Origin: Escherichia phage vB_EcoM_Kelasse
Length of the DNA: 64,000 nucleotides
Sequence record: MW749001.1
Strand: one strand, 5' to 3'
In this document: piece after piece, positions 12,046-30,571 of the stretch
Position numbering within the stretch: position 1 is the stretch's first letter
Layout of the letters: each line of letters begins with the position of its first letter
The notes under the pieces: model-generated
The model's input: the letters and a program-made list of their open reading frames with translations, nothing else
The model's database searches: none
Told to the model about the DNA's origin: nothing
Position numbers and translations under genes: made by a program

Positions 12046-12049
12046 CAAT

Positions 12050-12067
12050 GGGGACCGAAAGGTCCCC
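12050..12067 (+). terminator. Stem-loop terminator after gene 54
   Basis: ggggaccgaaaggtcccc followed by a T-rich tract. Confidence 0.5.
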
Positions 12068-12073
12068 ATATTT

Positions 12074-12364
12074 TTATTTACGGAATGAAATAAAAGCAGC
12101 AACTGAAGCAACTAAACTGTCTTCAATATAAACCTCAATTTTTACCGGAGCTTCTGACTCAAATTTACCTGTTACTACACCTTGGAAAATACTTTCAGTC
12201 TGTTCTGGCTTTGAAAAATTTTCAGAAGGAAAAATTCCGAACTTTTTATCTGTTCCAAAAATTTTGATAAATTCATCGTAAACTGCTTCATTAAAAGCAT
12301 TATCAGCAGGAATAACGCCTTCAACTACAAGTTCTTGACCTAAAAAGCGCAAAGAAGATTTCAT
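12074..12364 (-). CDS. Hypothetical 96-aa protein (alt.-3 position)
   Basis: ORF preceded by GAGGA Shine-Dalgarno and an early promoter. Confidence 0.5.
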   Translation of the reverse strand: MKSSLRFLGQELVVEGVIPADNAFNEAVYDEFIKIFGTDKKFGIFPSENFSKPEQTESIFQGVVTGKFESEAPVKIEVYIEDSLVASVAAFISFRK

Positions 12365-12395
12365 TTTGTGTTCCTCATGTTATGTCAGTAAGACT

Positions 12396-12425
12396 ACTAT
12401 AACACAACACGAGGGACTTGTAAAC
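12396..12425 (-). promoter_or_regulatory. Early promoter (GTTTACA, 17 bp, TGn-TATAGT), cassette copy A
   Basis: -35 at 12425..12419 and -10 at 12401..12396 on the minus strand; 54 bp identical to 27721..27774. Confidence 0.55.
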
Positions 12426-14482
12426 TACATTTTGAACTTTTTAGACATTCCGTTGATGTTAACCAAAGAAGCCAAGATTTGAGAAACTTCGTTTTCCTCT
12501 TCTTTTGATTCTTCTACAAGGAATTGATTAAATCCAGCCATTGGACGAACTTCACCAGTTTCCATTAGATGGTCGCCATCATATACCGATTCCTCTAATT
12601 GTTCAGAAGGAGGAACGATTGTACCTTCTATTAGATACTTGTTATAAGCAGTTTCTTTCATAAAGTACGTGCTCACTTTATTAATCTTCAGTAAAATTCC
12701 ACGCGGTAGAATAACTTCAGCTTCTGATGGAAATCCTGATAAATGACCTGGAACGATAACTTTGATTCGCTCAGCTCCTTTAATTACCATACCCACGCTA
12801 GTTTCAGCATCTTCATTAGCATATGTAGAATGACTACCCATATGCATCAAATCTTCTGCATCAACGGAACCTTCTCCTTCGCCAGAAAATACTGCGCCGG
12901 AATCATCTAGAGCCATATAGTTTTTACCATGCTCACCGAAGATATTTGGTTTAAGCGATGTGGATACGAAGTTCTTGAAATAGAACATTTTATTTTCAAT
13001 GTTATGACGCAAAGTTTTAAAGGTAACTTCTTGTCCACGGTAAAGTGTAGTTCCTGGAGGAAGAACTGAACCTTTAGCGAATGCAGAATCAAGCGTCTCA
13101 ATATGTTTAATAGCTCGTTCCATATATTCTTCACGGGTAGAATCTGGTTTACCCAAAAGGAACGAGTTCATTTCAACATATGAATCTGCACAATAATCTT
13201 CAATTACATCAGACTCAGCCTGAGTTAATCCTTTTGGAGTTACTTCAGTACTTGCATATTCATATGCCTGAGCGGCAGATTCATTAATCAATTTATAAAT
13301 GCCATTCATGACAAATTGAATAATAGCTGTCTTTTCATCTGGTGTAGCTTTAGAACCTTTAACTAAATCATTGATAATTTTCTTAATAACATCAAAGCTA
13401 TTAGAAATATTAATGTCAGCAAGATCGCTTAAAATTTTATCAGTTTTATAATCAAAGAATTCTTTATTCTTTAAATATTCTTGAGAACCTTGATATGTTA
13501 TATCGCTCTGCAGCTTGATAGATGGATCGCGTAAACGTGCATGGGCCAATGCAATATGATTTCGGAAGTTTTCTAGTTCATAATCGTTAGATTTAAAACG
13601 AGAAGCACTTCTCATACCACCGATAGCTCCTTTGCTAAAGTTTGAACCAATCTGAATAACGCCAGAGTTCATCGGACCTTCTGCTTTATATACCGGAACT
13701 TTAGATTCAAACTCTTGATATTTCTTAGCAGCGAAGCTATCACCCTGAAGTGAAGCATCAACAGTAGAATATTGAGCTTGTGCTGCTAATCGACGACTAA
13801 TTTTAGTTTTCTGAATAACAGCTTGATCCGTGCGCTTATCATTTTCTAAAGCAATAGAAGCAGCAACAGCGACAGCTTTAGGAACAGCATTACCTGTTTT
13901 AACGTCTACATAAACATCACCAACCTTTGATTCAACTTTTGTGAATAACTCAGTTGAAATAGGAGGTACACCTGGAATGTCTTCTAAATTGGCATTTTTA
14001 CGGTAAACCATAATATATGCATATTTCTTATCATAGTCCCAGATTTCCTTTAAAAGAACATATCGACCTGCTCCTTTAGTACGTACTAAACGGTCAGCAA
14101 TAACTTGCATTTGACGAGCTGCGCCATTTGTTTTACTCTTTAGTACGCGGAATAAGCATGCATCAATTTTATACTGTTTCATTGTTTGAAGAGCAGTATC
14201 AAAAACAGCATTAATGACGCCAATTGGATTTCCACCCAAGTTTTTAAGCTTAACTAATGATAGTTTCTCATTAACACCTATCATTACGATATGCATCATT
14301 TTGTCGCCTGGCTTAACGTTTTTATTCGTATCACCGCCAGAGGTGTATGTACAAAATCTAAATCCAGGAAGCACGCTTTCTTCACCGGCTTGAATAGCAA
14401 AAATTTGTGGTATTTTATGCTTAGGATTTAAGTTAACAACCGGCGCCGAAGCGCCGTCAAATAATTCTGTAATAAGTTCCAT
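12425..14482 (-). CDS. Alt-like ADP-ribosyltransferase paralog (685 aa)
   Basis: N-terminus MELITELFD... shared with Alt; candidate ART motifs YRGQ, FVSTSL, EAEVILPRG; starts 3 nt after the alt stop. Confidence 0.7.
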   Translation of the reverse strand: MELITELFDGASAPVVNLNPKHKIPQIFAIQAGEESVLPGFRFCTYTSGGDTNKNVKPGDKMMHIVMIGVNEKLSLVKLKNLGGNPIGVINAVFDTALQTMKQYKIDACLFRVLKSKTNGAARQMQVIADRLVRTKGAGRYVLLKEIWDYDKKYAYIMVYRKNANLEDIPGVPPISTELFTKVESKVGDVYVDVKTGNAVPKAVAVAASIALENDKRTDQAVIQKTKISRRLAAQAQYSTVDASLQGDSFAAKKYQEFESKVPVYKAEGPMNSGVIQIGSNFSKGAIGGMRSASRFKSNDYELENFRNHIALAHARLRDPSIKLQSDITYQGSQEYLKNKEFFDYKTDKILSDLADINISNSFDVIKKIINDLVKGSKATPDEKTAIIQFVMNGIYKLINESAAQAYEYASTEVTPKGLTQAESDVIEDYCADSYVEMNSFLLGKPDSTREEYMERAIKHIETLDSAFAKGSVLPPGTTLYRGQEVTFKTLRHNIENKMFYFKNFVSTSLKPNIFGEHGKNYMALDDSGAVFSGEGEGSVDAEDLMHMGSHSTYANEDAETSVGMVIKGAERIKVIVPGHLSGFPSEAEVILPRGILLKINKVSTYFMKETAYNKYLIEGTIVPPSEQLEESVYDGDHLMETGEVRPMAGFNQFLVEESKEEENEVSQILASLVNINGMSKKFKM

Positions 14483-14485
14483 GAT

Positions 14486-16579
14486 TTATCCTTGAACGAA
14501 CTTGTAAGGCATGTTTGTAATATCTATGCAAGACGCAATAATTCCAAGAGATGATTCTACTTTCTGTTTAACGTTTGATGAAACAAATGATGCAAAGTCA
14601 ACTCTGTCTTCTATTTCAATATCACCTGTCATTGCAACCAATTCACCAGTTTCCATTAAATGGTCTCCATCATAGATTACCGATTCGGTGAGCTCTTCCG
14701 TAGTCATAACTTCAGCTTGAATGAGTTTTGTATTATTAGATGTTGTTCCGTCATTATTAGAAGCATCAGTTATTTTATTAACTTTGACCATCAATCCACG
14801 CGGTAGAATAACTTCAGCTTCTGTTGCTATTCCGAGACTTCCTGGATATACAACATTAACTTTATGAGCTCCATCAATTGCCCATCCTATTTGAACTTTA
14901 ACGTATTCAGGATTTTCTTTATACGCTCTTATTTCGTTTGGATTAATAGTTATTCCTTCTTCATTTTTATCAACTGTTAATTCATTGCGAGCTTCTGGTT
15001 CTAAAAGACCAATACCAGCATGTGTAATTCCAAAACGTCCAAAAATGATAGGAGTTAAAGAAGTAGATACAAAATTTCTGAAGTAGAACACTTTATTTTT
15101 AACTAACGCTTCATATATAGGAGCAGTCATACTTTGAGCACGATAAACTGTAATGCCTTCTGGTATACGGTCACCATTTTCAAAAGCTGAATCTAAGTTA
15201 TTTATAGCAGATTCAATTTCTTTTTCACTCATTACATCATATCGTTCTGGATTGTAACGACCTAAAAGAAGATTATTGATGTCAGTATATCCTGAACCGC
15301 AATATTCTCTAATGCCACGCTTTTGTGATGGAGTATATTTAGAACCATCGCGGGCAATAGTAATATCAATCATTGGACCAGCACCAATTCCAGAAAAACT
15401 GTAAATCATTCGTTTGAGGAATTTAGTTTTTGCTGCGTTCCAGGAATTTTTAGTTATTTCTTCCCAGACTTCATCTGGTTGTCCTTTACGATTTTTATTA
15501 TGATTAGCAAGCCATTTATCTTTATAATCTTCAAAGAATTGATTTATAGCTGCTGCGTATTTCTCTAAACATTTTATTGAAGTAGTTGGTTCATTTTTAA
15601 TTGCATTAAAAATTACTTCTTTAATTTTTTCTGAAACTTCACCGACTTGACTCATTGGAAAGAATTTATAATCATAGTGAAGTTCATCTGCCGTTCCTTC
15701 AGCAATAATTTTTGCTGCCTTTGTTTTAGAAGCTAATGAATTAATTCCAATTTTCATTTCTTCTGCTTCGGGAATTAAAGGTGCAGTAGCTGGTTTATTA
15801 AAATTAGCTGCTGTAGATTCATACTTCTGGAATAATTCACTTTCAAATCTAGAAGATTCCAATGACTGGCTTTGTGCAATTGCTCTACGGGAAATTTTAA
15901 CTTTAACGATTACAGCTTGGTCAGAACGTTTATCATTTTCTTGCGCAATAGATGCTGCAATTGCTTCATTTTTGGTTACTTGAGCTCCAGTATCTTTATT
16001 AATATAAACATCACCGACCTTCGATTCAACCTTAGTAAAGAGCTCGGTACTAATTTCCGGAACCCCTGGAATGTCTTCTAGTGATACATTTTTGCGATGT
16101 ATAAGAATATATGCATACTTTTTATCATAATCCCAGAGTTCCTTAAGAAGGACGTATCTGCCACCTGAACGACTACGGATAAGTCTATCAGCAATAACTT
16201 GAATTTGTCGAGCTTGGCCAGCAGTTTTAGACTTAAGAATACGAAGCATACAAGCATCAATTTTATATTGACGCATTGTTTGCATTGCAACAGTAAAAAC
16301 TGAATTGATATAATTAATTGGGCTTGGACCAAGACCTTTTAATTTAGCAATTGAACCTTTAGCAGTTAATGTAAAAGGAACAATATGCATCATTTTGTCG
16401 CCCATTTTTAAATCACGATTAGTATCACCTCCAGATGTATAGGTACATAAACGAAAGCCTGGTTGTTCAATTGCATCATCAACATGAACTGAAAAAATTT
16501 GTGGTATTTTCTTCTTTGGATTTAAGTTTGTAATCGGAAGAGTAGTATCTTCGTCAAATAATTCTGTAATGAGTTCCAT
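14486..16579 (-). CDS. alt: Alt, packaged RNA polymerase ADP-ribosyltransferase
   Basis: 698-aa ORF (697 from the second Met); N-terminus matches remembered T4 Alt; YRAQ, FVSTSL, EAEVILPRG motifs. Confidence 0.8.
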   Translation of the reverse strand: MELITELFDEDTTLPITNLNPKKKIPQIFSVHVDDAIEQPGFRLCTYTSGGDTNRDLKMGDKMMHIVPFTLTAKGSIAKLKGLGPSPINYINSVFTVAMQTMRQYKIDACMLRILKSKTAGQARQIQVIADRLIRSRSGGRYVLLKELWDYDKKYAYILIHRKNVSLEDIPGVPEISTELFTKVESKVGDVYINKDTGAQVTKNEAIAASIAQENDKRSDQAVIVKVKISRRAIAQSQSLESSRFESELFQKYESTAANFNKPATAPLIPEAEEMKIGINSLASKTKAAKIIAEGTADELHYDYKFFPMSQVGEVSEKIKEVIFNAIKNEPTTSIKCLEKYAAAINQFFEDYKDKWLANHNKNRKGQPDEVWEEITKNSWNAAKTKFLKRMIYSFSGIGAGPMIDITIARDGSKYTPSQKRGIREYCGSGYTDINNLLLGRYNPERYDVMSEKEIESAINNLDSAFENGDRIPEGITVYRAQSMTAPIYEALVKNKVFYFRNFVSTSLTPIIFGRFGITHAGIGLLEPEARNELTVDKNEEGITINPNEIRAYKENPEYVKVQIGWAIDGAHKVNVVYPGSLGIATEAEVILPRGLMVKVNKITDASNNDGTTSNNTKLIQAEVMTTEELTESVIYDGDHLMETGELVAMTGDIEIEDRVDFASFVSSNVKQKVESSLGIIASCIDITNMPYKFVQG

Positions 16580-16602
16580 CATATCCTCTCTAGTGTTTAT
16601 TC

Positions 16603-16633: not shown

Positions 16634-16820
16634 AATAATCTATTGGTAAGAGAGTACGATATATTTCAAACTTTGGACCTTTTTCATAGGCATCAAATGT
16701 TTCTGTGAATTTATTATAAGCATATGCATCTATAAATTCAATCATGATTTGTGATACAGAAGTAGAAACATCTCCACCTTCTTTTTGAGCCACGACAATT
16801 GTTTCTAAGTAAGCTTTCAT
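16632..16820 (-). CDS. Hypothetical 62-aa protein
   Basis: ORF between ligase and alt. Confidence 0.4.
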   Translation of the reverse strand: MKAYLETIVVAQKEGGDVSTSVSQIMIEFIDAYAYNKFTETFDAYEKGPKFEIYRTLLPIDY

Positions 16821-18280
16821 AAACCAGTTACCTCATGAAAATCGCCAAATACATCTTCGAACGTATTAGCTTTAGTTTTATCTTCACGTAAACGAATCGC
16901 AATCGGAAGAAATAATTTAACGTAATCAGTGCGACCATCAGATTTTAACCAACCGTTGCATTCGCACTCTAGAATTTTTCCAATATAATAATTTTGATTT
17001 TCCATAATGCGAGTACGATCAAGTTCATGCGATTTTACACCGGCTTTATCTTTTAAGCCTGAACCAGCATTTACTTTAATTTTTCCACACTCTGATTCAA
17101 GAACGAAACCACCTGCTTTAGTAGGGTCTTTACGGTGAGGATAAATTCCTACAATTTTTAAATCAACATCAATTACTTCTTTAAATTTATAGAGATTTTT
17201 TGAACGAGCATTTTCCCATAATCCATCGATATTTTTGAGAATAATACCTTCAAGACCTTGGTCAATATACTTTTTGTAAATTACCTTAGCTTCATCTAGG
17301 TTATTTACTACTTGGTTTTCAATTAAAATTACTTTATCATAGCCTGATGTCATTTGTTCTAGTTTAGAAAAACGTACATCATATTTTAAACGAAATGCTG
17401 GAAGACCATATATTTCTACTAATGGAACATAGTCCCAGACCTGAAACTTCATGCATTGTGCTTCTTTTTCAGAAATGGTTCCCTTTAAAGATTTATTGGC
17501 GATGCCATTAGATGCAGTACGTGATTCAGCTACTTCGGCGAATTCTTTAGCTTTACTAATTTCAGGATAAGCATCAAAAAGAAAATCTAGGCCTTCTGGT
17601 TCCTTTTCAACTTGCTCATGGTATACCAATTCGCCATCAATTAACACACCTTCTGGATGAATCTGGCGGGCTTCAGCAGTCATTTTGATTAACTCTTCCT
17701 TAAGAAGATCTAATCCTAGATATTCATTGCCAGCTCGTGATAAAAGACGAACATCATCTAATTCATCACCTCTGACTTCGGCAAAGCACCGAGCTCCATC
17801 AGCTTTTAATTGGGCAAAGGCTGGAAATTTGATATTCTTATTAATGCCTTTTTCATCATAAGAACTTGCCAGCATTTGAGGTTGTTCAGGAATTAAACCT
17901 GGCCAAACTTTATTTGCAATAGATACTGATGCACCGCATTCAAGGTCTCGCATCATCACCCGACGCAAAACTTCAACATCATCTTTTTTACCATCGGTGA
18001 TGTATCCAGTTAATTCCTCAATCGCCGCATTTCCAGTCAATTTCCGAGTAGCTAACGTGAATTCAATGAAGTCAAGCATATCGGTAAGAGTCAACATTCC
18101 AAAACTCTGGGTAGCAATACCAGGTTTAGGCCATTTCTTGATATAATACTGTAACCCACGAGAATAAGTCAGACGATATACTCGTTTAAGCAATTCATTA
18201 TCTTTATTCTTTTCAAGAATTGCTTGCTTCTGCTTAGTTGAACCAATAGATGCTATTTCGTTCAGAATTTTAAGAATCAT
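16817..18280 (-). CDS. 30: ATP-dependent DNA ligase
   Basis: 487-aa ORF matching remembered T4 DNA ligase almost residue for residue. Confidence 0.92.
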   Translation of the reverse strand: MILKILNEIASIGSTKQKQAILEKNKDNELLKRVYRLTYSRGLQYYIKKWPKPGIATQSFGMLTLTDMLDFIEFTLATRKLTGNAAIEELTGYITDGKKDDVEVLRRVMMRDLECGASVSIANKVWPGLIPEQPQMLASSYDEKGINKNIKFPAFAQLKADGARCFAEVRGDELDDVRLLSRAGNEYLGLDLLKEELIKMTAEARQIHPEGVLIDGELVYHEQVEKEPEGLDFLFDAYPEISKAKEFAEVAESRTASNGIANKSLKGTISEKEAQCMKFQVWDYVPLVEIYGLPAFRLKYDVRFSKLEQMTSGYDKVILIENQVVNNLDEAKVIYKKYIDQGLEGIILKNIDGLWENARSKNLYKFKEVIDVDLKIVGIYPHRKDPTKAGGFVLESECGKIKVNAGSGLKDKAGVKSHELDRTRIMENQNYYIGKILECECNGWLKSDGRTDYVKLFLPIAIRLREDKTKANTFEDVFGDFHEVTGL

Positions 18281-18546
18281 TGTTCATCCTTTAGAGTTTG
18301 GTTTACAGCTCTATTATAAATCAATTCATCATTAAGCTCAGTCAAAGACCTGTGGTACGTTGTTCTAACTTTATTTCCTTGCATCCAGTGCTTGACGTAA
18401 ATGAAACCTTGCTCTACACATTTTTTAAAAATTCGTTCGTCTTTTTGAGCTCGGAATTCTGGATTGCATCTAAAAAATTGATTTACGTGACCGTAATCAC
18501 GTGTAGTATTACCTTCATTTTCATAAATAGTGTGAACGACAAACAT
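18277..18546 (-). CDS. 30.1: Hypothetical protein
   Basis: 89-aa ORF overlapping the ligase start. Confidence 0.5.
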   Translation of the reverse strand: MFVVHTIYENEGNTTRDYGHVNQFFRCNPEFRAQKDERIFKKCVEQGFIYVKHWMQGNKVRTTYHRSLTELNDELIYNRAVNQTLKDEQ

Positions 18547-19385
18547 TAGAATGCTCCTTGGAAAATATTATCACCACTAGTAGGTCTATTATACAAATAC
18601 TCTATGCCACCAGGTTTAATATAGTTCCATGTCTGAAACGGATGTGTCTGATATGGATGATATAGATGATTATAAGGATTAAATCCAGGAGTTCTCCAGG
18701 TAGTGTTCCAAGGAAAAGAATCGTTTTTGATCATCTTCTCAATTACATCTTTTATAAATTTTTCACTATCAAAACTTTCTTTATTTTCCTTCGATGGAAA
18801 AAGCTTATTCTCTACATCATTCCATGTATAAACTCGCTGTGCAGTTTTTGGAATACTGTCACGCTCTCCTCGAGCCATCCAATAAACTGGAACATTTAAT
18901 ATTTCACTCGCATGATCGCAGTGGTGAGCGAGATCGTCAATATAACAAATTACGTTATATTTCTCTTTTGCCTTTTTGAACAACTCTTCTTTTGAAGAAT
19001 CATGACCACACATCAATATTTCTGAGAAGGCACCAGGAAAAAGAGCATTCAAATTAAATTGACGATTCAGCAAAGCATCAATAGAATCACCCAATGCTGT
19101 AACAGCTACAAAATTATAATCTTCTTTTAATTTGTTAATTACACACAGGGCATCTTTATATGGAGACAAGTAACGAATAAAATCTGAACGATTGTATTTT
19201 TCAATTAACTTGACGCCAAGTTCTTCATCACAATTAAAGAGTTTACCAGGAGAAATAAATTTCTCATCTTGGATCATTTTTAAAATATGTTCTAACGGAA
19301 GATTATATTTCTGAGCAAAATAAGGAAGGCCTGATTGCCAGCTTAAACATACTCCATCAATATCAGTCAAAATAGTAGGCTTCAT
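18546..19385 (-). CDS. 30.2: HAD-like hydrolase domain protein
   Basis: 279-aa ORF; N-terminal ILTDIDGV resembles HAD motif I. Confidence 0.55.
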   Translation of the reverse strand: MKPTILTDIDGVCLSWQSGLPYFAQKYNLPLEHILKMIQDEKFISPGKLFNCDEELGVKLIEKYNRSDFIRYLSPYKDALCVINKLKEDYNFVAVTALGDSIDALLNRQFNLNALFPGAFSEILMCGHDSSKEELFKKAKEKYNVICYIDDLAHHCDHASEILNVPVYWMARGERDSIPKTAQRVYTWNDVENKLFPSKENKESFDSEKFIKDVIEKMIKNDSFPWNTTWRTPGFNPYNHLYHPYQTHPFQTWNYIKPGGIEYLYNRPTSGDNIFQGAF

Positions 19386-19846
19386 AGAGAGTCTCTTAAT
19401 AGGTTTAACACATCAATAAATTCAGCTTCGGTTAGTATTGTATCATCTTTTGTTAGACCACTAGCCATGCTGTGCTTCAAAACTTTTCCTTTTGAGGCTT
19501 GTAAGGCATCACGAAACCCCTTGTTTTGAATCGCTGCTTCAAAATATGCATTTGTATACAACTCTTTCCACGCTGGGGAGTATCTTGAAAATGGAACTCC
19601 CAGCCAGAAGAGGGTCCCACGGTCCTGAGCTCTTGCATAAGACCTTCCAGCTTGTTGGGCGGCAAGCCCGGATAACCCAAATATACGACGTTGTTGTTCA
19701 ACATTTTTCACCTTGCACCCTTGGAGGAATCCTTCAAGACCTCCAAATTGAATACCATCCATAACGAAAGGCCATTTGGCGAAATTACTTAATGCACATG
19801 ATGGCCACCTAAAATTGCTTCTAATCTCTAACTCAGACATTTTCAA
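19382..19846 (-). CDS. 30.3: NADAR (YbiA/DUF1768)-like protein
   Basis: 154-aa ORF; LSNFAKWPF..DG....E.F.Q..K pattern resembles the YbiA family. Confidence 0.5.
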   Translation of the reverse strand: MKMSELEIRSNFRWPSCALSNFAKWPFVMDGIQFGGLEGFLQGCKVKNVEQQRRIFGLSGLAAQQAGRSYARAQDRGTLFWLGVPFSRYSPAWKELYTNAYFEAAIQNKGFRDALQASKGKVLKHSMASGLTKDDTILTEAEFIDVLNLLRDSL

Positions 19847-20039
19847 TGCTTATAATTTCAACATCAGCCCAATGACCATAGCAAGGAAGACGAAATTCAA
19901 CTGGCCAGTTAGGGTCCTTTTCTAATATAATAGACTTAACTTGTGGTTCTTCATGTTCATCTGTATACGGATTTTTATCTGTTACTTTATATGTGACCTT
20001 AATGTACTGAATTCCAAAAATCTTATTAATTATATTCAT
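19833..20039 (-). CDS. Hypothetical protein
   Basis: 68-aa ORF in the 30.x block. Confidence 0.45.
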   Translation of the reverse strand: MNIINKIFGIQYIKVTYKVTDKNPYTDEHEEPQVKSIILEKDPNWPVEFRLPCYGHWADVEIISIENV

Positions 20040-20233
20040 ACTAATTCCTTTAATCCATAGATAGGAGATAATTCATCACCCATACGAAGGTCTTCATTTC
20101 CATCTACCCAGGAAACAATATAAGCATCTTTTACTTGAACATCTCCCAATTTAAATGCAGGTAAAACCTTAGAAATTAATCCAGGTATACCAACTCCCTT
20201 TAATTCAACAGTTTGACCTAAAAAGAATTTCAT
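20036..20233 (-). CDS. Hypothetical protein
   Basis: 65-aa ORF in the 30.x block. Confidence 0.45.
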   Translation of the reverse strand: MKFFLGQTVELKGVGIPGLISKVLPAFKLGDVQVKDAYIVSWVDGNEDLRMGDELSPIYGLKELV

Positions 20234-20520
20234 TAGAACCTCATCTGAAAACCATGCGATTTAACATTACCGCCGCCAATATCAGAAATGTTAATTTCAC
20301 GCGCAATTGAAGGGTCAATGTCAATTTCACGATTAAGTTTAGTGATAGCTAAAGTATCGCGGCCATTTACAGTACGGAACTCTAAAGGGCAGACTACATT
20401 AACATAGTTTTTAATCGATTCACTAGTAGGCTGCAAATGAGCAGGAAGGTCTTTAGGTGCCTTAGAGAAAACCACTTCACAGAAATTTTTGCGGGTATCA
20501 AAATAAGTAGTCATAAACAT
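20233..20520 (-). CDS. Hypothetical protein
   Basis: 95-aa ORF preceded by GAGGAAAA Shine-Dalgarno and a UUCG hairpin. Confidence 0.5.
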   Translation of the reverse strand: MFMTTYFDTRKNFCEVVFSKAPKDLPAHLQPTSESIKNYVNVVCPLEFRTVNGRDTLAITKLNREIDIDPSIAREINISDIGGGNVKSHGFQMRF

Positions 20521-20537
20521 AGTATTTTCCTCAGTAA

Positions 20538-20551
20538 GGGGCCGAAGCCCC
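20538..20551 (-). other. C(UUCG)G hairpin
   Basis: ggggccgaagcccc (plus strand). Confidence 0.45.
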
Positions 20552-20561
20552 TCATTTTATT

Positions 20562-20927
20562 TTAAATATCAAATTCGTTAAGAACTACATCAAAGATTGC
20601 TTCCAGATGCTCAGGTTTAGCTCTGTTACTCAGAATATGACGAATCCAAGTTTTAACCAGAAGCTTGCGATTAACGCCATTCCAGCAAGGATGAGTCCCT
20701 AAATCGCGTTGACGGAAATCATCATCCAGAGCGATTTTAAAGTTGGAACCTTCCATTGTGATTGAAACCGTAATGCCATTTTCAAATCGCATATAAACGT
20801 AGTTAGGAGTCATATACTGTTCAATTTCGCATACTGATCCATTTTGATGTTTCCAAAGGCAAATAGTATCAATAGAACCTGCAATACCATTAGAAACATA
20901 TTTACGTTCAAAGTTGATGTAGTTCAT
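20562..20927 (-). CDS. 30.7: Hypothetical protein
   Basis: 121-aa ORF. Confidence 0.5.
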   Translation of the reverse strand: MNYINFERKYVSNGIAGSIDTICLWKHQNGSVCEIEQYMTPNYVYMRFENGITVSITMEGSNFKIALDDDFRQRDLGTHPCWNGVNRKLLVKTWIRHILSNRAKPEHLEAIFDVVLNEFDI

Positions 20928-20953
20928 TTTTATTCTCCGAGATGTTTAATTGC

Positions 20954-20993
20954 GGTACAGGTATATAATATCATATCCTGTACCAAAGTAAAC
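20954..20993 (-). promoter_or_regulatory. Early promoter with an inverted repeat enclosing the -10
   Basis: -35 GTTTAC at 20993..20988, -10 TATTAT at 20970..20965; ggtacagg/cctgtacc inverted repeat. Confidence 0.45.
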
Positions 20994-20995
20994 AA

Positions 20996-21328
20996 TTATT
21001 TTACTACTTTCCAGTGCTGCATGTCAAGTTTACCGACTTTTTTCATCTTCTCAATTAAACGTTCGGCACGTTGGCGAGCTGTAACATAATACCATTCACC
21101 TAATTCATTTTGTTCAATTTTTCCAACGATTACTGTATTCAATTCATAAATCCAACCAGTAAAGAAATTATGAACTTGAATTGTAAAGGTGAAATCTGTT
21201 CCCATACCTTCTGCTGTTTCTACTTCAATAATATCACCTTCAACTGCCATTAAAAACCACATAGTTTCATCATATTTACCATTGAAGCATTTAGTTTTAA
21301 CTGCAGCGTTCAGATTAATCGTTTTCAT
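20996..21328 (-). CDS. 30.8: Hypothetical protein
   Basis: 110-aa ORF. Confidence 0.5.
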   Translation of the reverse strand: MKTINLNAAVKTKCFNGKYDETMWFLMAVEGDIIEVETAEGMGTDFTFTIQVHNFFTGWIYELNTVIVGKIEQNELGEWYYVTARQRAERLIEKMKKVGKLDMQHWKVVK

Positions 21329-21355
21329 TTTATTCTCCTTTGTTTGTGTAAGATA

Positions 21356-21385
21356 ATACTATCACAAAGGAGCTATACTGTAAAC
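21356..21385 (-). promoter_or_regulatory. Early promoter (GTTTACA, 17 bp, TAGTAT)
   Basis: Sits immediately downstream of the 21416..21433 terminator hairpin. Confidence 0.45.
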
Positions 21386-21415
21386 AACTTTATGCAATCT
21401 TTGGAAAATAAAAAA

Positions 21416-21433
21416 GGACTCCCGAAGGAGTCC
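21416..21433 (-). terminator. C(UUCG)G hairpin terminator with a U-tract
   Basis: ggactcccgaaggagtcc; minus-strand RNA continues UUUUUUAUUUU. Confidence 0.55.
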
Positions 21434-21438
21434 TCAAC

Positions 21439-21615
21439 TTATGCTTTCTGCTTACCAAAACGAGAAGCATCATCTCGAAGAACCGCACGTGCTCGGCGCA
21501 TGATCTTCTCAACAGTTTGATTGATACGAGAGTTCGACCCACGCTTGTAGCCAGCGCGTTTAGAATCACCAACTTTCTTTTCAACTGCTTTCTTTGCTTT
21601 AACCTGTTTTGCCAT
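21439..21615 (-). CDS. Small basic protein (30.9 position)
   Basis: 58 aa from internal ATG (MAKQVKAKK...); Lys/Arg-rich; the longer ORF-track start lacks a Shine-Dalgarno. Confidence 0.5.
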   Translation of the reverse strand: MAKQVKAKKAVEKKVGDSKRAGYKRGSNSRINQTVEKIMRRARAVLRDDASRFGKQKA

Positions 21616-21904
21616 TATAAATTCTCTTTTAAATGAAAATGCAGGACTTATTGGCATTGCCTGCGCAAGCCCTCAAGGGGAACATAGGTTTTTGGATATT
21701 TAACGACCAGGATAACCATAAACCCGTCATCATACCACCAAGACTTACACAGATAACACTTTTCTGACGCATGATAGTAACATTCAAGAGGTACACCATA
21801 AAACTGCCGGGGTCTTAAAACTATAATGATTCGCAAATCATTAATCAGACAGTTCGATGGCTCCTCGATTTTAGCTCACACTAAGGCAGTGAATCTCCAA
21901 TAAA

Positions 21905-22153
21905 TTACTTCAGTGTTACCACAAAGTGACGAACTGCTTTTCGTGCAGCAGAAGCCAAAGGCTTAGCATATTTAAGTTCATCTTTTTCCTGAAGCTCAGC
22001 AGCTAATGCAGTTTGAGCAGGATTCAGATGTTTGAAATAACGCAGGATTTCAAGAGCTTCGGCTTCAACATCAATAGATGCGCCATAGTTTTCGTGACCA
22101 TTATTCCATGCGTTTCGTTGCAGTTCAAGAGCGTGTTGTAATTGTTTAATCAT
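21905..22153 (-). CDS. rIII: rIII lysis-inhibition accessory protein
   Basis: 82-aa ORF matching remembered T4 rIII. Confidence 0.8.
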   Translation of the reverse strand: MIKQLQHALELQRNAWNNGHENYGASIDVEAEALEILRYFKHLNPAQTALAAELQEKDELKYAKPLASAARKAVRHFVVTLK

Positions 22154-22300
22154 TTAAAAATTCTCGTTAGAGATTAAAACTCGGTAGTTACGTTCTTCTG
22201 AATTTCATCTTCTTTCGACAGATCTCTCAGTTGTAGACTACCACATAGAATTGTTCGGTTAACTTATTATTCCGACACCCAATTCATATTATTATTTATA

Positions 22301-22636
22301 TCACTTATAAAGACACGGAATAGCTTTATAATGACAGGTAACGAATTTTTGTTTAATTTCTTTTGGCTGCTTAAGACCCAGAGCTACAAAAGGATGCGGA
22401 ACGTTTCGAATTTGACCAACTGGAAGAGAAGTCAAATCACCAACTTCACAAAAACCTTCAGGAACATCAGGACCGACAGAGTGAATTACACACAGTTCAG
22501 GAACTTCACCTTGAACACGTTTACCGATAATAAGTCCTGATTCTGTAACTTCTTCATCACCGGCTTGTGCAGGTTCAGAAACTAAAATAACATATTCACC
22601 GACAGCACGAATTGGTAGCTGTTGTACTTCAGACAT
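22301..22636 (-). CDS. 31: gp31 co-chaperonin (GroES-like)
   Basis: 111-aa ORF matching remembered T4 gp31. Confidence 0.85.
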
Positions 22637-26869: not shown

Positions 26870-27219
26870 TTAGAAAGGTCCTGGATGTCTTCTGCGAACT
26901 TGTTGAAGGAGTTGTTGATTTGTTTTTCAACCAATCCTGGCTTATGAGCCACCACATCCGCCTTCTTTGCGTCTTTGCGCAGTTTTTCATTTTCACGCTC
27001 AATAGCAGCAATTGCCTCACGATTTTTATTATTCATCGCATCAATATAATTATACTGAATTCGCAAATTATTTAATGCTAAAGCGTTTTCATTGGCCGTT
27101 TTTGTAATTTCTACAACAGACGTTTCTAATCTTTCAATTTTATTTTTTAAAATTAAAGAAGTTCCGCCCAATGCAATTACAATTAATAGCAAGCCTGCTG
27201 TCGTATTACTTAATTGCAT
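26866..27219 (-). CDS. pseT.3: i-spanin (Rz-like)
   Basis: N-terminal transmembrane segment followed by a charged, coiled-coil-like region; 117 aa. Confidence 0.65.
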   Translation of the reverse strand: MQLSNTTAGLLLIVIALGGTSLILKNKIERLETSVVEITKTANENALALNNLRIQYNYIDAMNNKNREAIAAIERENEKLRKDAKKADVVAHKPGLVEKQINNSFNKFAEDIQDLSK

Positions 27220-27713
27220 AAAGTTTTAATAACCTCTATAATATCGTCTTGAGAAAGACCGTTAATTAAAATATGATGTTCAGCCGGAGATTTAGAAATT
27301 TTAAAGCATGCCTCAACATCTTCTGCCATATCTGATGCGCTACGATTTGGATTACTAATTCCAAGACGATGTTTTCCCGTCAAAGGATTAACGATGATAT
27401 AGCATTTACAGTTGTTAATATGAACATTAGGTTGAGTCTGATTAATGAACACATCACAATCATATTTCGCAAGCTGATTTTCTAAAAAGACTTTCATCTC
27501 CTCAACTGCATCAGGAAGCATATCACGGGCTTGCTCAAGACGACGATTTCGATATTCTTTAATGGTCGTTTTCCGCTTGACTTGCTTAGCTAAATCTTTC
27601 TTAAGATCGGTGATATATCCAACTCGACGATTTCCTTTGAATACAGAAATCCCATCTGTAGTATCACCGTATGCTTCAACGACCATTTCAGTAGTAATAA
27701 GTTGTAAATCCAT
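27210..27713 (-). CDS. alc: Alc, host transcription terminator
   Basis: 167 aa from the second Met; synteny pseT to alc to rnlA. Confidence 0.75.
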   Translation of the reverse strand: MDLQLITTEMVVEAYGDTTDGISVFKGNRRVGYITDLKKDLAKQVKRKTTIKEYRNRRLEQARDMLPDAVEEMKVFLENQLAKYDCDVFINQTQPNVHINNCKCYIIVNPLTGKHRLGISNPNRSASDMAEDVEACFKISKSPAEHHILINGLSQDDIIEVIKTLCN

Positions 27714-27744
27714 CATAAAGTCCTCATGTTATGTCAGTAAGACT

Positions 27745-27774
27745 ACTATAACACAACACGAGGGACTTGTAAAC
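27745..27774 (-). promoter_or_regulatory. Early promoter, cassette copy B
   Basis: 54 bp (27721..27774) identical to 12372..12425, including the GAGGA Shine-Dalgarno. Confidence 0.55.
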
Positions 27775-27777
27775 AGC

Positions 27778-29365
<1,588 letters not shown>

Positions 29366-29392: not shown

Positions 29393-30571
29393 TTAAAAAT
29401 ATTTTTTAAAACTCATCATAACTTTATCATCAACATCATTATCAATCTGTGCTACAAGGTAAGATGACAGTTCTACTTCTTGCGGCGCGGATTGAACATT
29501 ATCAGAATTAAGGTATTCACGAATCCAAGGATATGGATGTTTAACCGGAGCATCGGTAATTGGACATGGAAGACCGCACTGTTTCATACGAGATACAGTT
29601 AAGTAATCAATAAAGCTCCACATGCTATTTGTATTTAATCCAGGAACATCGCCATCTTTAAATAAATGAACTGCCCAATCTTTTTCTTGGCGGTTAACTT
29701 CCATGAAAATATCAACTGCTTCTTGTTCACACTCTTGAGCAATTTTAACCCATTCATCGCCATCAGTACCAGATTGAAGTTGACGAATAATATATTGGGT
29801 GCCTTTAAGGTGAAGCTGTTCATCGCGTGCAATGAACTTCATAATCTTGGCATTACCTTCCATGATTTCCATGTTCTTATGGAAGTTAAAGGTACATGCG
29901 AAAGATACATAAAAACGAATAGCTTCCAATGCATTGATTACATGCAAACAGAGGTAAAGAGATTTCATTAGCTCACGCTTCCAATATGTCTCATGCTCAA
30001 TAGCATCTTCAATAACGTCTTCGTCTGCATTAATTTCTTTTTGGTATTCGATATCAGCTTTAGCGTTTTCCCAATAACGAGTTTTAATCAGAACATCATC
30101 ATAATAACGTCCAATGGATTCAGCACGTTTCATAATAGCTTCATCTAATACAATTTCATCAAATACCTTCGATGGATCAGTATAAAGATTTCGCATGATA
30201 TGAGTATATGAACGACTGTGAATAGTTTCACTAAAAGTCCATGTAGCAACCCATGTATCAAGGCTTGGGTCTGAAATTAATGACATAAGTACAGCAGATG
30301 GCGCGCGACCCTGAATGCTATCTAAAAGTGATTGATACTTCAAGTTGTTAGTAAAAATATTTTGCTGATACTGAGGAAGCTTGTTAAATTGCGCAGCATC
30401 CATCATTAAGTTTACTTCTTCAGGACGCCAGAAAAATGACAACTGCTTTTCGGTTAAATCTTCAAAAACTTTATGACGTTGAATATCATAACGCGCAATA
30501 CCAAGGCCTGAACCAAAAAACATAGGTTCTTTTAAAACATCAACTGGATTTGTATTAAAAACTGTGCTCAT
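29393..30571 (-). CDS. nrdB: Ribonucleotide reductase small subunit; uninterrupted, no intron
   Basis: Contiguous 392-aa ORF; di-iron ligand E..H motifs present. Confidence 0.88.
   Translation of the reverse strand: MSTVFNTNPVDVLKEPMFFGSGLGIARYDIQRHKVFEDLTEKQLSFFWRPEEVNLMMDAAQFNKLPQYQQNIFTNNLKYQSLLDSIQGRAPSAVLMSLISDPSLDTWVATWTFSETIHSRSYTHIMRNLYTDPSKVFDEIVLDEAIMKRAESIGRYYDDVLIKTRYWENAKADIEYQKEINADEDVIEDAIEHETYWKRELMKSLYLCLHVINALEAIRFYVSFACTFNFHKNMEIMEGNAKIMKFIARDEQLHLKGTQYIIRQLQSGTDGDEWVKIAQECEQEAVDIFMEVNRQEKDWAVHLFKDGDVPGLNTNSMWSFIDYLTVSRMKQCGLPCPITDAPVKHPYPWIREYLNSDNVQSAPQEVELSSYLVAQIDNDVDDKVMMSFKKYF

Follow-up and report, generated by a model that had tools for sequence, protein, structure and literature searches.

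Near-identical early promoter cassettes ahead of alt.-3 and alc in Tequatrovirus genomes, with signs of exchange between the two copies

The cassette and the genes that it serves

The 64-kb window analyzed here (64,000 nucleotides, numbered from its first base) is a segment of a Tequatrovirus (T4-like) genome. Two of its minus-strand genes, alt.-3 and alc, are each preceded by an intergenic gap of 60–61 bases, and 54 of these bases are taken up by the same sequence, TCCTCATGTTATGTCAGTAAGACTACTATAACACAACACGAGGGACTTGTAAAC. A whole-window search finds this 54-mer exactly at 12372–12425 (copy 1) and 27721–27774 (copy 2), and at no further site in the 64 kb with up to 3 mismatches; chance matches in 100 dinucleotide-preserving shuffles numbered 0. 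A sequence-only reading of the window had reported 54 identical bp at two distant loci, and these searches bear it out. The copies are direct repeats 15,349 bp apart, both belong to minus-strand genes, and the identity between them breaks off within one base on either side. The features of the two loci are as follows.

12372–12425, minus strand: copy 1, early promoter, leader and Shine-Dalgarno of alt.-3 (exact match; 53/54 to the T4 alt.-3 upstream region)
12424–12419 (-35, TTTACA), 12404–12403 (TG), 12401–12396 (-10, TATAGT) and 12376–12372 (Shine-Dalgarno, GAGGA), minus strand: parts of copy 1
about 12389, minus strand: predicted start of transcription from copy 1, placed by spacing only
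27721–27774, minus strand: copy 2, early promoter, leader and Shine-Dalgarno of alc (exact match and promoter scan; identical to T4 NC_000866.4, 136283–136336)
27773–27768 (-35), 27750–27745 (-10), about 27738 (predicted start) and 27725–27721 (Shine-Dalgarno), minus strand: parts of copy 2
12074–12364, minus strand: alt.-3, 96 aa, the gene served by copy 1 (ORF list; 97.3% DNA identity to T4 alt.-3 over the full length)
27210–27716, minus strand: alc, inhibitor of host transcription, served by copy 2 (96% DNA identity to T4 alc; annotations of the matches)
12425–14482, minus strand: second alt paralog, 685 aa, whose TAG stop shares its G with the start of copy 1
27778–28902, minus strand: rnlA, RNA ligase 1 (matches T4 rnlA over the full length), with 3 nt between its TAA stop and copy 2
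12048–12069, no strand assigned: bidirectional terminator-like hairpin in the gene 54/alt.-3 gap, with a 9-bp stem, 6 GC pairs and a T-run on the plus strand
16817–22636, minus strand: genes 30 (DNA ligase, 16817–18280) and 31 (co-chaperonin, 22301–22636), between the copies (comparison with T4)

Read on the minus strand, each copy is GTTTACAAGTCCCTCGTGTTGTGTTATAGTAGTCTTACTGACATAACATGAGGA. Both contain a -35 element in GTTTACA (TTTACA), a 17-nt spacer, a TGn motif and a TATAGT -10 element, the two hexamers agreeing with the sigma-70 consensus at 10/12 positions in a promoter scan; downstream come a discriminator, some 17 nt of leader and, as the final five bases, the Shine-Dalgarno GAGGA. GAGGA is separated from the ATG by 7 nt at alt.-3, and at alc by 4 nt from the first ATG or 7 nt from the ATG annotated in T4, which is the second one (27713). 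The sequence-only reading had described the repeat as early promoter, leader and Shine-Dalgarno of unrelated genes, and the hexamers, spacer, TG and GAGGA are indeed found at both copies. It had placed copy 1 after the stop of an alt paralog and ahead of a 96-aa ORF, which proves to be T4 alt.-3, with the copy starting at the G of the TAG. Its placement of copy 2 upstream of alc and after the rnlA stop agrees with the T4 matches, the actual gap to the stop being 3 nt. Between the copies lie alt, alt.1, gene 30, rIII, gene 31, cd and pseT. In the record of phage Lutter, a promoter predicted by the depositors covers the identical -35 to -10 stretch at copy 1.

We compared the 21 early-promoter-like sites of the window pairwise. 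The duplicated pair scores 54/54, the runner-up pair 41/54 and the median pair 21/54, in line with the earlier statement that the other early promoters here have the consensus alone in common. Where a T4 early promoter would have an A/T-rich UP element, copy 1 has AAAAAGTTCAAAATGTA directly upstream; the first ~20 nt upstream of copy 2 are CCCAGAAGGATACTAAGCT, and the A/T-rich tract lies further off. The UP-element regions of both copies fall inside coding DNA and outside the repeat, and they differ between the copies; the two promoters may therefore differ in strength. Downstream of alt.-3, the hairpin at 12048–12069, which carries a terminator annotation in related records too, would by its sequence close a short transcription unit begun at copy 1.

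The leaders of both copies fold no better than shuffles, and the leader has no match in Rfam even at E<=1. A riboswitch-like or otherwise structured RNA leader was ruled out on these two grounds. Nothing in the sequence suggests a role for the cassette past strong early transcription and translation initiation. Across all 64 kb no Rfam family attained its gathering score, and so the scan gave no sign of a group I intron; T4 nrdB has an intron, and nrdB in the window (29393–30571) is an uninterrupted ORF of 392 aa.

Two further features of these promoters and leaders were observed. Many early-promoter spacers contain a short dyad running into the extended -10, for example CCACAAGGACTGTGGTA and ACCACAAGGATGTGGTA, or CACATGGATGTG in RB69; examples include the minus-strand promoters of the window from 57858, 62115 and 54231 and the alt.-3 promoters of RB69, IME08 and VR7. 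The dyad of the duplicated cassette is weak only (ACAAG..GTTGT). At both loci the ATG within ATGAGGA opens a 5-codon mini-ORF (12364–12380 and 27713–27729, minus strand) that ends in a TGA overlapping the main start codon; the overlap is also found in the alt.-3 leaders of outgroup phages. This mini-ORF is probably a by-product of a fixed Shine-Dalgarno to ATG spacing combined with an AAA second codon.

The pair across Tequatrovirus and its sister genera

Around copy 1 the window is 100% identical to phage FriedrichZschokke, and around copy 2 it is 98–99% identical to many relatives. T4 itself (NC_000866.4) carries the sequence at 54/54 at 136283–136336 (alc) and at 53/54 at 123040–123093 (alt.-3), with one G>A in the alt.-3 leader as the difference from the window, and gene order is the same in both. 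Early promoters of T4 have been described as having 'UP/-35/TGn/-10' architecture (PMC2988021). The T4 promoters at alc and alt.-3 are of this type and correspond to the window copies in locus, strand and sequence (54/54 and 53/54). The features of T4 Pe promoters are likewise present in the window: a -35 element, a 17-nt spacer, TGn and a TAnnnT -10, in a T4-orthologous gap ahead of an early-strand gene. The two genomes differ in that both window copies have the most common haplotype, whereas T4 has the G>A change in its alt.-3 leader and, upstream of it, only remnants of the alt paralog (alt.-1/alt.-2).

Mapping of the 54-mer in T4-like genomes, which had been proposed with the sequence-only reading, places it at two fixed loci throughout the genus. 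Queries that join the 54-mer to flanks from both loci match at 997 places in 499 Tequatrovirus records (RefSeq/GenBank duplicates included), so that both loci are occupied in essentially every genome. Copy 2 is flanked by rnlA and alc in every genome examined, and none of the 60 records listed from the 54-mer search has more than two places. Using locus-specific exact 70-mers, we found the exact window 54-mer in 192/496 records at alt.-3 and in 141/495 at alc; 257 records have the exact sequence at one locus or both, which means that both are exact in at least about 76 genomes (15%). As the pair is present at the same positions in T4 and in about 500 relatives, it is not specific to the window phage. 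It is a genus-wide, ordinary and effectively known T4-type feature. A literature search, with the main T4 genome review outside its reach, returned no paper noting the near-identity of the alc and alt.-3 promoters, none on gene conversion between T4 promoters and no 5′-end data for the two promoters; the transcriptome in PMC9697503 gives none for these genes.

Outgroup genomes indicate how the identity arose. RB69 (Mosigvirus), IME08 (Dhakavirus) and VR7 (Gaprivervirus) agree with Tequatrovirus in gene order and have early promoters abutting the same stops at both loci, and the two promoters within each genome have in common the class consensus alone, GTTTACA..TG..TA...T..ATGAGGA. The RB69 pair agrees at 40/54 positions (~74%), which is the level between any two early promoters, whereas sampled Tequatrovirus pairs are 48–54/54 identical; the IME08 and VR7 pairs are also dissimilar, as judged by eye. 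With dissimilar pairs in the sister genera, the 54/54 identity is a derived state of Tequatrovirus. The simplest account is a single founding event in the ancestor of the genus, in which a copy of one intergenic cassette would have replaced the other. The visible replaced tract would be bounded by the flanking coding sequences, and the identity would end there because a longer replacement would damage the neighboring genes. Comparison of donor loci gave 42/55 for the T4-type sequence against IME08 alc and 41/56 against RB69 alt.-3, values too similar to tell the donor.

Drift and exchange between the copies

Variation was studied in 28 sequences of the alt.-3 locus and 27 of the alc locus, drawn from GenBank phages, from IMG/VR and from metagenome contigs and deliberately enriched for variants. 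Scans of IMG/VR with the Alc and Alt.-3 proteins and one metagenome scan with a degenerate 54-mer contributed 6, 5 and 8 loci to this sample, numbers too small for population statistics. In the 54-mer, nucleotide diversity is 0.049 at alt.-3 and 0.029 at alc, compared with 0.024–0.043 in the flanking 300–400 nt. The copies thus drift about as fast as their flanks. Within a genome they differ at 0–6 positions in the sample, and 21/25 pairs are non-identical, while variation is nearly absent from the -35, from the TG and from the stretch of leader between position 42 and the Shine-Dalgarno. Two single-base insertions were seen, an extra T giving an 18-nt spacer in the alc cassette of ECO95 1-6-1 and an extra G in the Shine-Dalgarno of the ACG-C40 alc leader (GAGGGA); these could be real variants or homopolymer sequencing errors.

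Counting positions along the transcribed strand with the G of GTTTAC as the first, we found 13 derived alleles at alt.-3 and 8 at alc in the 28 and 27 sequences. Seven of the 8 alc alleles also occur at alt.-3 (11T, 15T, 16A, 29A, 32A, 33A and 34T), among them 33A, a T>A transversion. The eighth, 27C, was found at alt.-3 in 11 records by a targeted search; it is an A:T>G:C change that converts TATAGT to TACAGT and so takes the -10 away from consensus. The hypergeometric probability of this degree of allele sharing ranges from 3e-8, if 162 substitutions are equally possible, to 0.02 for a universe of 25, and under a strict model with transitions at G:C sites only it is, by our own estimate, about 0.01. 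Sharing extends to multi-site haplotypes: 29A+32A, 32A+34T and 11T+16A are each present at both loci, and haplotypes typical of alt.-3 turn up at alc in 8 records (29A+32A) and 7 records (32A+34T).

We then looked at the partner copies of such haplotypes. Where alc has 29A+32A, the alt.-3 copy agrees in 3/4 distinct genomes (ZCEC15, G28 and PP01), the discordant one being KMB40, with 29A+32A at alc and 16A at alt.-3. Where alt.-3 has 27C, alc also has 27C in 3/3 checkable genomes (ACG-C40, KarlGJung and KIT06). Concordance in total is 6/7 genomes checked, possibly representing only one or two clades, or two events. Identical or near-identical pairs accordingly exist with three haplotypes: reference, 29A+32A and 27C. 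Nearest neighbors on 700–800 nt of flanking sequence show 4–25 differences and are mosaic, and single branches are not separable.

Because alleles and multi-site haplotypes are shared between the loci, and because identical pairs exist with three different haplotypes, these data suggest gene conversion. We lean, with modest confidence, toward occasional ectopic gene conversion, that is, exchange between the copies after the founding event. We also favor, if only slightly, the fuller statement that the copies evolve in concert through non-crossover conversion at about the minimal homology length for T4, with crossovers selected out. The homology needed for T4 recombination has been given as '<50 bp' (Singer et al. 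1982, as quoted in PMC2839356).

The main alternative is that there was one ancestral duplication or replacement followed by independent drift, with the shared alleles produced by recurrent mutation at a few hot or unconstrained positions. We consider this possible but on the whole unlikely. As recurrent mutation would have it, G:C>A:T transitions in the spacer and discriminator make up most of the shared alleles, and 29A turns TATAGT into the consensus TATAAT, a change that parallel selection could favor; many genomes have different variants at the two loci (the 21/25 non-identical pairs), and KMB40 is discordant. Such drift fits poorly, however, with the recurrence at alt.-3 of all 8 alc alleles, including the transversion 33A and the -10-weakening 27C, with two-site haplotypes that recur whole at both loci, or with the matching of a rare cross-locus haplotype at the other locus in 6/7 genomes checked.

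Far less probable is that purifying selection on a shared regulatory sequence, for example a co-regulating leader or a site recognized by a factor of the phage or its host, keeps the copies identical. The identity does span spacer, discriminator and leader positions that other early promoters do not have in common, and the almost invariant -35, TG and leader from position 42 to the Shine-Dalgarno are what such selection would leave. But at least 14 variant alleles are tolerated, including TATAAT and TACAGT in the -10 and a 1-nt spacer insertion; both copies equal the window 54-mer in only about 15% of genomes; sister genera drive the same two genes from dissimilar promoters; and the leader is without a match in Rfam. 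Diversity of the 54-mer equals that of its flanks, and on this ground we rejected purifying selection as what keeps the copies identical.

In enterobacteria, tufA and tufB are a known case of dispersed duplicates that evolve in concert by ectopic gene conversion. The cassettes resemble that case in that two dispersed copies match each other better inside a lineage than their counterparts do in related lineages, polymorphisms are held in common by the two loci, and identical pairs have different haplotypes from genome to genome. They differ from it in the unit, which here is a non-coding regulatory segment of only 54 bp from a virulent phage, and in the strength of homogenization, which is weak here, most genomes having non-identical copies.

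Modular shuffling, neighboring rearrangements and significance

The sequence-only reading had proposed the pair as a candidate substrate for modular shuffling of the kind attributed to promoter-early-stem-loop (PeSL) elements. In a PeSL, a strong early promoter is closely preceded by a stem-loop terminator and followed by a Shine-Dalgarno sequence with start codon, and an A/T-rich region forms part of the element; PeSLs cluster in hyperplastic regions around small ORFs, and indels have endpoints within them (Arbiol et al. 2010, PMC2839356; Comeau et al. 2014, PMC4122927). Mini-circles formed by recombination between copies are a further mark of PeSLs. Shuffling by PeSLs has been proposed for RB49/phi1, PST/T4 and nt-1/KVP40 (PMC2839356, PMC4122927). 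The cassette is like a PeSL in having a strong early promoter followed by a Shine-Dalgarno and start codon, and in being repeated in the genome at a length sufficient for homologous recombination. It is unlike one in that a stem-loop terminator is lacking, the copies are neither clustered nor set around small ORFans, and no indels or replacements have endpoints in the cassette in 499 genomes. Upstream of either copy we found no terminator-like site, those found being all downstream of alt.-3; the 80 nt upstream of each copy fold with z scores of -0.32 and +0.11 against shuffles, and the distance from the promoter to the preceding stop codon is 0 nt at copy 1 and 3 nt at copy 2. With only the promoter and Shine-Dalgarno half of the PeSL definition present, the cassette is not to be filed as a PeSL.

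Recombination across the copies was examined with two synthetic chimera queries, one joining the alt.-3 side, the 54-mer and the rnlA end, and the other the alc side, the 54-mer and the end of the alt paralog. A crossover junction between the copies, taken as at least 80% coverage of either chimera, was found in 0/499 records. Rearrangements do occur nearby. A 1.69-kb internal deletion of the second alt paralog (window 12445–14134) is common to T4, pSe_SNUABM_01 and N2; its products in T4 are the alt.-1/alt.-2 remnants, and the window keeps the full-length 685-aa paralog. The endpoint of this deletion lies 19 nt upstream of copy 1, outside the 54-mer. In vB_EcoM-G28 (MG867727.1, 19845–20249; window about 27573–27900), a 351-bp unit is tandemly duplicated at the alc locus; it runs from the 3′ end of rnlA through the promoter cassette into the first ~150 nt of alc. 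The duplication gives this genome one more identical promoter, the sole third copy encountered, as well as a truncated ORF for the Alc N terminus, and its junction falls in coding DNA, not in the 54-mer.

Other repeats and duplications were noted in the same regions. Gaprivervirus VR7 has an extra 'Alc-like' ORF243c (18011–18244) between rnlA and alc, and partial alc duplications may recur at this spot. The window has tandem full-length alt (ADP-ribosyltransferase) paralogs of 685 and 698 aa (12425–14482 and 14486–16582, minus strand), with conserved blocks that are 73–82% identical in DNA (repeat families D3, D6 and D10; spacing about 2094 nt). Near the start of the window, a 251-nt direct repeat of 76% identity (465–715/753–1003, spacing 288 nt; family D1) and, beside it, family D13 (411–451/699–739) point to what may be an internally repeated coding region.

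That the cassette is a mobile element of PeSL type, its copies being points at which recombination shuffles, excises or inserts gene modules, has hardly any credence left. The promoter, Shine-Dalgarno and start-codon part of the layout is present (PMC2839356, PMC4122927), 54 bp is near the ~50 bp of homology cited for T4 recombination, and the region beside copy 1 does vary, with the alt paralog full or truncated. Yet no stem-loop or terminator precedes either copy, the copies lie 15.3 kb apart with essential genes between them and do not flank small ORFans, both loci are always occupied with crossover junctions at 0/499, and the endpoints of the nearby deletion and duplication fall outside the 54-mer. 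For viable genomes this reading is largely refuted, and the proposal of a shuffling substrate is not supported: no upstream stem-loop, no junction in 499 records, and the pair already in T4. The outcome that had been named beforehand as refuting shuffling, the same pair at the same two loci without rearrangements, is the one obtained in the 499 records; no rearrangement there ends in the copies, the T4-type deletion and the G28 duplication ending elsewhere. Recombination between the copies survives as an idea in a weaker form, gene shuffling being unsupported and non-crossover exchange being favored by the shared polymorphism and covarying haplotypes. Errors of sequencing or assembly are ruled out as the source of the pair, which is present in hundreds of independent genomes.

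We regard it as probable that the pair consists of sigma-70 early cassettes made alike by one founding replacement, which have since drifted at the rate of their flanks with occasional non-crossover exchange. Judging from the promoter sequence and what is known of T4, host RNA polymerase could transcribe alt.-3 and alc immediately after infection. The T4 recombination system would then move variants between the copies by non-crossover exchange. Genes 30 and 31 are essential (conditional-lethal) in T4 genetics, and an added 15.3 kb exceeds the terminal redundancy of a T4 headful. Crossover between the copies would yield either a 15.3-kb deletion including both genes or a 15.3-kb duplication beyond the headful, products expected to be lethal, and so only non-crossover products could persist.

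The repeat marks no genome shuffling, mobility or new regulatory element, and its exact identity in the window is one common state of a polymorphic pair. As two T4 early promoters of catalogued type, the cassettes carry little weight for phage biology as such. What is new here is evidence that suggests weak concerted evolution of the two. If the copies do exchange sequence, promoter variants (TATAGT>TATAAT, TACAGT and discriminator changes) would spread between the promoters of two genes, and T4-like phages would provide a natural case in which very short, dispersed regulatory repeats undergo ectopic conversion. This would be the PeSL idea in a benign form, with regulatory alleles and not genes being exchanged. 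The shared alleles would then be a cheap natural read-out of ectopic recombination between repeats of roughly 50 bp in T4-type genomes, the length range that is invoked for PeSL-mediated and other short-homology exchanges.
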